Shown one piece after another: positions 6,321 to 11,964 of a DNA stretch of 11,964 nt. Each line of letters starts with the position of its first letter. The first letter of the stretch is position 1. Source of the DNA: a virus (taxonomy: Duplodnaviria; Heunggongvirae; Uroviricota; Caudoviricetes); the IMG/VR virus record IMGVR_UViG_648276671_000013; one strand, 5' to 3'. The translations under genes and the position numbers were made by a program. The notes below the pieces were generated by a model, which was not told the DNA's origin, did no database searches, and was given only the letters and a program-made list of their open reading frames with translations.

Positions 6321-6644
6321 TTTTCCGCTGTCGCAAAATCGGCAGCCGGGCGTAGGAACCCGTGTAACTCGAAGGCGACATATGACGCGCCATGCGTCTT
6401 TTTTTGTGTCGCAATCAACGCCACAGAGCGCCAGATTATGGTGTGGCGTGTGGTTTGCCGTGCAGGTATGATCCTGTTCGCAATCGCATGTTATGCCACT
6501 GAGTCAATGGTAGCTCAGGCGGGGCAGCCTCCGGGCTGGCCGGTATTCTTCGAGGCCGGTATTCCTACCCCCGTCTGGGCTATCGCCATCGAGCGTAGGA
6601 ACTCCGGCGATAGCAGTTATTTGCTACTCGAAGGAGACGGCCTT

Positions 6645-10415: not shown

Positions 10416-10430
10416 ATCCCTGAATTCCCC

Positions 10431-10710
10431 GAAGGTGAACAATCCACTGTTCACCCTTCACCGTATATTCACCTGTTATCACACTGAAATTAAAAGAGAA
10501 AAACGAAAGGTGAACAGTGTGAACAATCAAATCAAAAAAAACTTTTTTTCTCCCTGTGTGATTTTCAGTACGGGGGATTAATCACCGGTATGAGTCACAC
10601 CGGCAGAATGCCGGAGGTGAAGAATCGAATGTTCACCCTTCACCCATTATTCACCACCTATCATACTGAAATAAAAGGAGAAAAAAGAAAGGTGAACAGT
10701 GTGAACAGTT
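10431..10710. repeat. crr-like region: two roughly 100-bp direct repeats each carrying TGTTCACC/GGTGAACA iterons
   Basis: Repeat 1 (about 10431-10530) and repeat 2 (about 10612-10710) share GGTGAA...TGTTCACCCTTCACC...ATTCACC...ACTGAAAT(T/A)AAAAG(A/G)AGAAAAA(C/A)GAAAGGTGAACAGTGTGAACA. Matches the recalled P4 crr organisation. Confidence 0.55.
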
Positions 10711-10920
10711 CTTTCGAAAAAAAAATTTTTATGTGGATAAAAGATGCACTGGTTTGGATCCGGGCTACGGATCCAAACTTACTGATTAAAAATTATTTAA
10801 CTTTCCGATTTATTGATGGGCTGAAAATAGATTGGTCAGAAAAACAGTGGGGGCACAAAAGGGGGCATATTTCATTGTTGTGTTTTATTATTTGTTTTTT
10901 ATCATTAACTTATTTTAATG

Positions 10921-10942
10921 TTTGAGTCCGGCCTTCGCACCA
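10921..10942 (+). other. att core remnant: degenerate copy of a tRNA-Leu (leuX-type) 3' end
   Basis: TTTGAGTCCGGCCTTCGCACCA resembles the recalled tRNA-Leu 3' end TTCGAGTCCGGCCTTCGGCACCA with one substitution and one missing G. No tRNA body upstream (AT-rich), so this is a core repeat, not a tRNA gene. Confidence 0.5.
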
Positions 10943-10955
10943 AAAGTATGTAAAT

Positions 10956-10979
10956 AGACCTCAACTGAGGTCTTTTTTT
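10956..10979 (+). terminator. Rho-independent terminator just downstream of the att core
   Basis: AGACCTC-aact-GAGGTCT followed by T7; positioned like a tRNA gene terminator. Confidence 0.55.
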
Positions 10980-11142
10980 ATGCCTGAAATCCGCACCACG
11001 CAAGGCTTTTCCAGCTTTTCTCCTCAACTGAAGTCAACCTGACTCAACCCACATCAACAGGCTTGTGAGTATACTAATAAGCATATTTGCCGATTCGATA
11101 TTGCTTGTATACTCACGAGATACCAATGGAAGGAAGACCATT

Positions 11143-11964
11143 ATTGCCCTAACGGATACTAAAGTTCGTTCTGTGAAGTCAGAGGAGAAAGAGTATTCAC
11201 TTGTTGACGGCGACGGCATGTCTTTACTTGTAAAACCTGGCGGTTCAAAGTATTGGTGATTTCGTTTCCGTTCTGGTGGTAAACAACATTTGATGGCGTT
11301 CGGCGTTTACCCGGATGTTTCGCTGGCGGATGCGCGGAAGAAAAGGGAAGAGGCCAGAAAGCTGGTAGCTGCTGGTATCGATCCTCGTGAGCATAAACGT
11401 GCTGTGAAAGAAGAGCAGGCGAAAGAGATTATTACTTTCGAGAAGGTTGCCAAATAGTGGCTCGTGACCAACCAAAAATGGTCGGAATATCATGCTAATC
11501 GTCTAAAAAGAGCCTGGAGGAGAATATCTTCCCGGCAATTGGTGCTCGTAATATTGCTGAACTGGGCACCCGCGATCTGTTAATTCCCATTAAAGCTGTG
11601 GAGAAATCCGGACGTCTTGAAGTGGCTCCTTCAACAGCGCACCACGGCCATCATGCGTTATGCAGTGCAAAGCGGGTTAATTGATTACAATCCGGCGCAA
11701 GAGATGGCGGGGGCGGTTGCTTCCAGTAATCGACAACATCGTCCGGCGCTGGAATTAAATCGCATCCCTGAGTTGCTTGAGAAAATAGACAGCTACACCG
11801 GCAGGCCGCTAACCCGCTGGGCAACGGAACTCACTCTACTTATCTTCATCCGCTCCAGTGAACTGCGTTTTGCTCGCTGGTCAGAAATCGATTTTGAAAC
11901 GTCAATGTGGACCATCCCTCTTGATGGGCATTGCAGTAAGCTGAGGGTTGGACTGGTATTGTAA
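11143..11964 (+). pseudogene. Second P4-family integrase, disrupted (start codon lost, two in-frame stops, at least two frameshifts); continues to the window edge
   Basis: Three reading frames together spell an integrase paralogous to int at 1-1266 (IALTDTKVRS...GGSKYW*FRFRSGGKQHLMAFGVYPDVSLADARKKREEARKLVAAGIDP...VAK*WLVTNQKW...TTAIMRYAVQSGLIDYNPAQEMAG...ELRFARWSEIDFETSMWTIP). Confidence 0.8.

Follow-up and report, generated by a model that had tools for sequence, protein, structure and literature searches.

A decayed P4-family integrase behind a P4-like satellite at leuX, probably the relic of an older island

The second integrase gene and its lesions

The window, that is, the whole stretch of 11,964 nucleotides analysed here, starts at the ATG of one integrase gene, int1 (1–1266), and ends just beyond the remains of another, int2. 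The first-pass annotation had described this second integrase as a P4-family gene that follows an att core and a terminator in the same orientation as int1 and has been inactivated by several lesions. The int2 frame can be followed from 11143 in the orientation of int1, to which it shows clear similarity, and both the placement and the decay are borne out. The features of the region are listed in Table 1.

Table 1. Features at the right end of the window and lesions of int2 (window positions; L004 is the intact homologue used as reference)
Feature	Position or change	Strand	Basis
Two tandem 12-nt arm-type repeats of the satellite attP (GTGGGGGCACAA, AAGGGGGCATAT)	10847..10870	+	identity to P4
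Satellite attR core, the old attL of the relic island	10924..10942	+	core search across loci; attL/attR/empty-site alignment
Orphaned leuX intrinsic terminator	10956..10980	+	terminator scan; 7-bp stem, 4-nt loop, T7 run
Presumed int2 arm-type binding sites	11063..11116	+	inverted repeat; alignment with P4-type arm repeats
int2, P4-family tyrosine integrase pseudogene	11143..11918	+	codons 1-260 of 422 covered
int2 codon 1	ATG>ATT, G>T at 11145	+	alignment vs L004
int2 codon 39	CGA>TGA at 11257	+	alignment vs L004
int2 codon 105	GAG>TAG at 11455	+	alignment vs L004
int2 -1 shift	A6>A5 at 11505-11509	+	alignment vs L004
int2 5-bp deletion (TCCCG)	between 11627 and 11628; placement ambiguous by 1-2 nt	+	alignment vs L004
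int2 3' truncation	homology stops after 11918/11919, codon 260/261 of 422	+	alignment vs L004
41-bp joint between the int2 break and the IS end	11919..11959	.	present with this truncation
Left end of a degraded IS3-family element, first bases	11960..11964	+	match to L010; boundary +/-2 nt

Intact homologues of int2 adjoin leuX in complete Escherichia coli genomes: two of our loci (L004 and L005) carry the 422-aa protein WP_001531241.1, and a third (L007) carries a version of 423 aa. The int2 DNA is about 95% identical to the intact 422-aa leuX-adjacent genes. One of these (L004:2544-3812) served as the reference, and every difference between it and the window was listed. This alignment, which the first-pass annotation had called for, verified each lesion that it had claimed. 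The start codon at 11143 reads ATT, the in-frame stops at 11257-11259 and 11455-11457 are sense codons in the intact homologue, the A5 run is one A short, and the small deletion suspected near 11625-11632 is a loss of five bases. Only the end of homology had to be moved. The loss is real and removes most of the catalytic domain, but it lies about 11 nt before the claimed position of ~11930. The two indels add up to -6, and frame 1 is therefore restored after 11628.

With ATT as its first codon, two stops and two indels, int2 has no uninterrupted frame with a start codon. The copy in an O169 genome is described in RefSeq as 'frameshifted; internal stop; incomplete', and 11143-11964 of the window should likewise carry the label of a pseudogene rather than a set of short ORFs. 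Three minus-strand ORFs across int2 (11037-11219, 11248-11493 and 11654-11824) gave no Pfam match at E<=0.1 and were for this reason treated as spurious. The same applies to a 111-aa ORF (10590-10922/10925), equally unmatched at this threshold; it overlaps a 120-nt repeat of the satellite and is called 'integrase' in one RefSeq genome, probably spuriously. The Rfam scan of 10900-11964 returned no matches, and the only candidate from the promoter scan, a weak site within the int2 pseudogene, did not rise above shuffled sequences.

After repair of the lesions, the translation of 11143-11918 matches Arm-DNA-bind_3 (PF13356, E=1.6e-28, residues 3-87) and Phage_int_M (PF22022, E=1e-27, residues 99-193). 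Together with the ~95% DNA identity to intact genes, these matches go far beyond what chance would give. The Pfam search found no match to the catalytic domain PF00589 (Phage_integrase) in the repaired stub. This domain spans residues 206-384 in the intact homologues, and only its first ~55 codons are kept in int2. Because PF00589 is missing and homology ends at codon 260/261, the window copy is a gene remnant and not a functional member of the family. Aligned over 97% of its length, the intact homologue shows 57.2% identity with P4 Int (E=5e-154), and its identity to int1 is 57%; in agreement with the Pfam domains, this justifies the P4-family label.

The sequence behind the break indicates how the 3' part of the gene was lost. 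The 41-bp joint is common to all alleles with this truncation (it is present in L001, L002, L006 and L009), and a search of the intact loci (L004 and L007) did not find it. In L010, an IS3-family element is complete and matches from the equivalent of window position 11960, and an OrfA remnant just past the window end matches HTH_Tnp_1 (E=1.3e-7). Since the 41 bp are missing from the intact loci, the truncation is a deletion joint beside a degraded IS element. A simple insertion of the IS into int2 is ruled out by the same 41 bp. Among 5426 complete E. coli genomes, at least 351 have the truncation junction.

The att core, the arm sites and the satellite

The core in front of int2 is a partial repeat of the tRNA 3' end that lies between the two elements. 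It reproduces the leuX 3' end (GAGTCCGGCCTTCG-CACCA) but is one G short of the tRNA. In this form, CCTTCG-CACCA, it also differs by that G from P4 attP (CCTTCGGCACCA). The same short core occurs at the attR of every satellite-bearing locus (the window, L002, L008, L009 and L024) and at the distal repeat of an intact int2-type island (L027:26690), and attL always has GG. It follows that strand exchange takes place 3' of that G, inside GCACCA. The terminator behind the core is identical to the sequence that follows leuX in satellite-free genomes.

No tRNA gene was found in the window, because the window starts at the int1 ATG and leuX lies just upstream of position 1. A full copy of the core is found in the upstream leuX of the satellite-bearing relatives L002, L008, L009 and L024. 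For the window, attL would lie upstream of position 1 and the cargo of the older island would continue past 11964, as is suggested by relatives that are nearly identical over 10920-11964. In our model the intact leuX, with GAGTCCGGCCTTCGGCACCA as its core, would be expected ~165 nt upstream of int1.

Arm-type repeats are found on both sides of the core. The tandem pair at 10847-10870 is identical to the pair annotated as 'attP arm sequence repeat' in phage P4, whose core and arm repeats are both annotated in X51522, and it belongs to the newer satellite and not to the relic. A second set lies in the ~160-nt leader of int2. There, GAGTATA stands at 11067-11073 and, inverted, at 11108-11114; between them, at 11079-11085, a further copy has decayed to AAGCATA. 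This middle copy still reads GAGTATA in the intact alleles, and the window has substitutions at 11079 and 11082. The leader also holds a 13-nt inverted repeat (I2), 92% complementary, at 11062-11074 and 11107-11119. The int2 leader has the layout of the P' arm of P4 attP, in which the core is followed by ~120 bp, two tandem arm repeats, an inverted one and the start of int. We infer from this alignment that the GAGTATA repeats may have been the arm sites of Int2. Because the int2 motif differs from the GGGGGCA of P4 and of the satellite, the arm sites of the old island are presumably no target for Int1.

The cargo of the satellite is a Kiwa-like KwaA/KwaB pair (PF28043; PF16162 weak) on the minus strand between int1 and psu, at 1325-2741. 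The same slot holds a RexA-like gene in L024 and a TIR-domain protein in strain 2D, a variation in keeping with the defence hotspot known from P4-like satellites. The Rfam scan gave only two matches above the gathering score, isrK (69 bits) and C4 antisense RNA (74 bits), at 6327-6404 and 6503-6590 on the plus strand; both are inside the satellite, and 6327-6590 is its P4-type immunity RNA region. A 120-nt direct repeat (10429-10548 and 10611-10730; 82% identical, spacing 182) carries GGTGAACAGTGTGAACA motifs. Its layout is like that of P4 crr, the cis-required replication region, with 120-bp repeats 180 nt apart. The int2 feature shows where the P4-like satellite truly ends on the right, at ~10942.

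The relic, the satellite and the older island in other genomes

The int2 relic occurs without the satellite. In three loci (L021, L025 and L026) the pseudogene directly follows an intact leuX, and over window 10920-11964 these loci differ from the window in only two places, the positions that distinguish attR from the tRNA. Over 10937-11964 the sequence is 100% identical in independent NCBI, ENA and Logan assemblies. The same satellite-free arrangement, at 99.3-99.4% identity, is found in the complete genomes O169:H41 Res13-Lact-PER13-34 and MEI003. In L024, a 100% identical pseudogene stands behind a different P4-like satellite, the one with RexA-like cargo. The exact 103-aa product of the region (11653-11964, ATG start) is indexed in 46 blocks of an assembly collection; among the matches listed for it, the window's combination of Kiwa satellite and int2 allele was not seen.

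Conversely, the satellite occurs without the relic. Its copies elsewhere have an identical primase and are 99.8-99.96% identical over 11 kb, and they precede at least six different downstream contexts, two of which contain an intact second integrase. The contexts include BREX, a helicase/PLD gene, an intact integrase with a kinase/HerA island, IS elements and NleB/NleE effectors. The relic alone follows leuX in six loci (L001, L021-L023, L025 and L026), and the satellite lacks this relic in five (L013, L014, L017, L018 and L019). Each element is thus found at leuX without the other, as in a tandem array. Because the two are seen apart, they are independent of each other, the satellite being recently mobile and the relic a chromosomal resident. 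The satellite-free genomes, L024 and the other contexts support the earlier suggestion that a newer satellite integrated upstream of an older, decaying island.

A related arrangement is seen in O157:H7 EDL933, in which the truncated int2 stands behind an attR-type core with GG (L006:2300-2345) and a different element that is not P4-like. Tandem insertion in front of the relic has therefore also happened independently with another type of element.

The first-pass annotation had proposed looking to the right of the window for remnants of the older island and for a second att repeat. In the relatives the remnants are present, but no second repeat was found. In the closest relatives (O169, L021-L026 and 2D), a BrxR/WYL regulator, a four-gene Wadjet system (JetABCD, with JetD recognised by name) and a phosphorothioate-sensing HNH endonuclease lie behind the pseudogene and IS remnant. 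The island of strain 2D has a type II Zorya system, after which core genes resume. In O169 the HNH endonuclease is followed by a truncated nanS, at the far end of the island, and by nanM, nanC and fimB. A distal att core (<=4 edits in 20 nt) was not found within 49 kb downstream in O169, nor was a distal repeat of the old island found in L002 and L021. Since no second core was found in O169, the relic island no longer has a distal boundary.

An intact counterpart is available in L027, in which an int2-type island has leuX on one side and a distal 17-nt core repeat ~22.9 kb away. This locus repeats the same stratigraphy, with the youngest element nearest the tRNA. Beyond its distal repeat there is a third integrase stub with heavy deletions (MALSDVKVRSAKPEAKAY* followed by a C-terminal fragment; L027:26150-26700, NZ_OZ040192.1). 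Arrays at leuX can thus hold at least three generations of integrases.

Proposed order of events at leuX

The attP of P4-type elements carries the 3' end of the tRNA, and upon integration leuX is made whole again at attL, with the old fragment staying behind at attR. Each integration thereby regenerates leuX as a usable, tRNA-proximal attB. Since leuX is regenerated, every newcomer inserts next to the tRNA, ahead of the element already there.

We propose, with a probability of about 93%, that int2 is the non-functional relic of an older leuX island that was displaced by a later P4-like satellite inserted in front of it. The relic would be the 5' two-thirds of the integrase gene of that island, the cargo of which in close relatives consists of BrxR/WYL, Wadjet JetABCD and further defence genes. 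The resident int2 would already have lost its catalytic domain by the deletion linked to the IS3-family element. The satellite (window 1 to ~10942, with its Kiwa-like cargo) would then have inserted between leuX and the resident island. In this step the old tRNA 3' fragment and terminator would have been left as the attR of the satellite (10924-10980), and the resident integrase would have been moved 11 kb downstream. Without selection for mobility, int2 could have gained the loss of its start, two nonsense mutations, two indels and the mutated arm site. It can no longer be translated into a recombinase, and the old island, for which no distal att repeat was found in close relatives, would not be excisable and is presumably immobile. 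We infer this order of events from the comparison of the loci described above.

The int2 alleles form a mosaic, and it bears on how the satellite arrived. The EDL933 stub is truncated and has no other lesion. Strain 2D has the truncation together with ATT and TGA; the window, O169 and MEI003 additionally have TAG, the -1 shift and the 5-bp deletion, the last being present in only two complete genomes (RefSeq) of 5426. A full-length int2 pseudogene in L012 (L012:13017-14945, GCA_014055045.1) has ATT, TGA, TAG and the -1 shift without the 5-bp deletion and without the truncation, and it adjoins a BREX system, that is, a different cargo. It is identical to the window over 10920-11513 and 10% divergent afterwards. 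All four combinations of truncation and point lesions thus exist among the genomes, which requires homologous recombination inside int2; the crossover site lies between 11509 and 11544. A linear decay, with the truncation first and the point lesions later, was rejected since L012 has the point lesions and is untruncated.

It is therefore conceivable that the tandem is real but that the satellite came by homologous recombination of a segment comprising the leuX flank, the satellite and the 5' part of int2, and not by Int1 integration. The breakpoint inside int2, the segment shared with L012 that includes four lesions and gives way to a divergent, full-length gene, and the recombination demanded by the four lesion combinations all speak for such an import. 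However, the same 5' haplotype of int2 is also found in satellite-free genomes (L021 and O169), so that its sharing with L012 needs no co-transfer with the satellite. In addition, the satellite, with its intact integrase and canonical attR, occurs in many different backgrounds. We consider this import rather improbable.

Two further observations concern the divergence of the alleles. Alleles with the same junction (L002, L006 and L009 against window 11143-11918) differ by ~5-7% in DNA, more than the typical divergence of the E. coli core. Other genomes have a different truncation near window 11760, with matches to 1-660/663 of the query only. Both the high divergence and the other truncation might stem from gene conversion by incoming integrase alleles. 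The crossover inside int2 (L012) and the existence of all four lesion combinations also lead to the tentative idea that the int2 stub may persist as a conserved homology anchor, together with the ahr-leuX flank, for swaps of satellites and defence cargo; we regard this as unlikely on balance.

The order could also be the reverse, with the satellite ancestral at leuX and lost by excision from the satellite-free relatives. The presence or absence of the satellite among int2 alleles that are 100% identical cannot by itself separate gain from loss. Nevertheless, an island whose integrase is dead and carries a truncation that at least 351 genomes have in common at this locus cannot be a later arrival than the satellite. 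Copies of the satellite vary by at most 0.2% across backgrounds in which the int2 region differs by 5-10%, and a second, different satellite stands on the same allele in L024. These comparisons support the satellite as probably the newer element, and the reverse order appears very unlikely.

Still less can be said for int2 as a part of the satellite, either in an element with two integrases or in one whose right end lies beyond 11964. The two genes share their orientation and lie close together, and L012 equals the window from the satellite through 11513. Against this, the satellite ends at the att core, which is preceded by P4-type arm repeats and the crr-like 120-bp repeat. Unrelated sequence lies behind the same satellite in other genomes, the pseudogene adjoins leuX where there is no satellite, and the putative arm motif of int2, GAGTATA, differs from the GGGGGCA of the satellite. 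We give this possibility almost no weight.

That the lesions are sequencing or assembly errors in a gene that is really intact, the outcome which the first-pass annotation had named as its refutation, has a negligible chance: indels in homopolymers such as A6>A5 are in general typical sequencing errors, but substitutions that create stops are not, and the identical lesions recur in many independent assemblies (100% identity over 10937-11964, the 103-aa product in 46 blocks, the 5-bp deletion in two complete RefSeq genomes and the junction in at least 351).

The reading of int2 as a displaced relic is in line with known occupants of the site. The intB gene of K-12 (b4271; KpLE2 / cryptic prophage PR-Y) lies at the same site after leuX and its terminator, in the same orientation, and belongs to the same integrase family, with ~81% amino-acid identity to the intact int2 homologue. 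It is likewise annotated as a pseudogene and has an IS element behind it. In contrast to the window, however, the K-12 DNA diverges ~50 nt after the tRNA, which makes it another allele or lineage. Furthermore, intB is nearly full length and has no satellite in front, whereas int2 is cut at codon 260 and has five further lesions. The P4 integrase (X51522 / NC_001609) has the three-domain architecture of the intact int2 homologue and targets the leuX 3' end. Unlike P4, a P2-dependent satellite, the window int2 is dead and comes from an island with defence cargo.

The leuX locus has been described as defence hotspot #37 of E. coli, with an arm-type integrase as its anchor and the highest occupancy among 41 hotspots (PMC12707154), and frequent integration of P4-like satellites there has been reported (PMC10121019). 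Tandem tRNA island arrays have the same serial occupation, partial tRNA repeats between elements, tRNA-proximal integrases and defence cargo. The window does not differ in kind from such arrays at leuX / hotspot #37; its local detail is the loss of the distal repeat and of most of the integrase. The feature itself is already known as a RefSeq-annotated pseudogene at a documented hotspot of integration and defence, and its import beyond correct annotation is small. The breakpoint in int2 adds a small data point on the exchange of defence cargo at hotspot #37, and the locus offers a clean example of stratified leuX occupation, with the youngest element nearest the tRNA.
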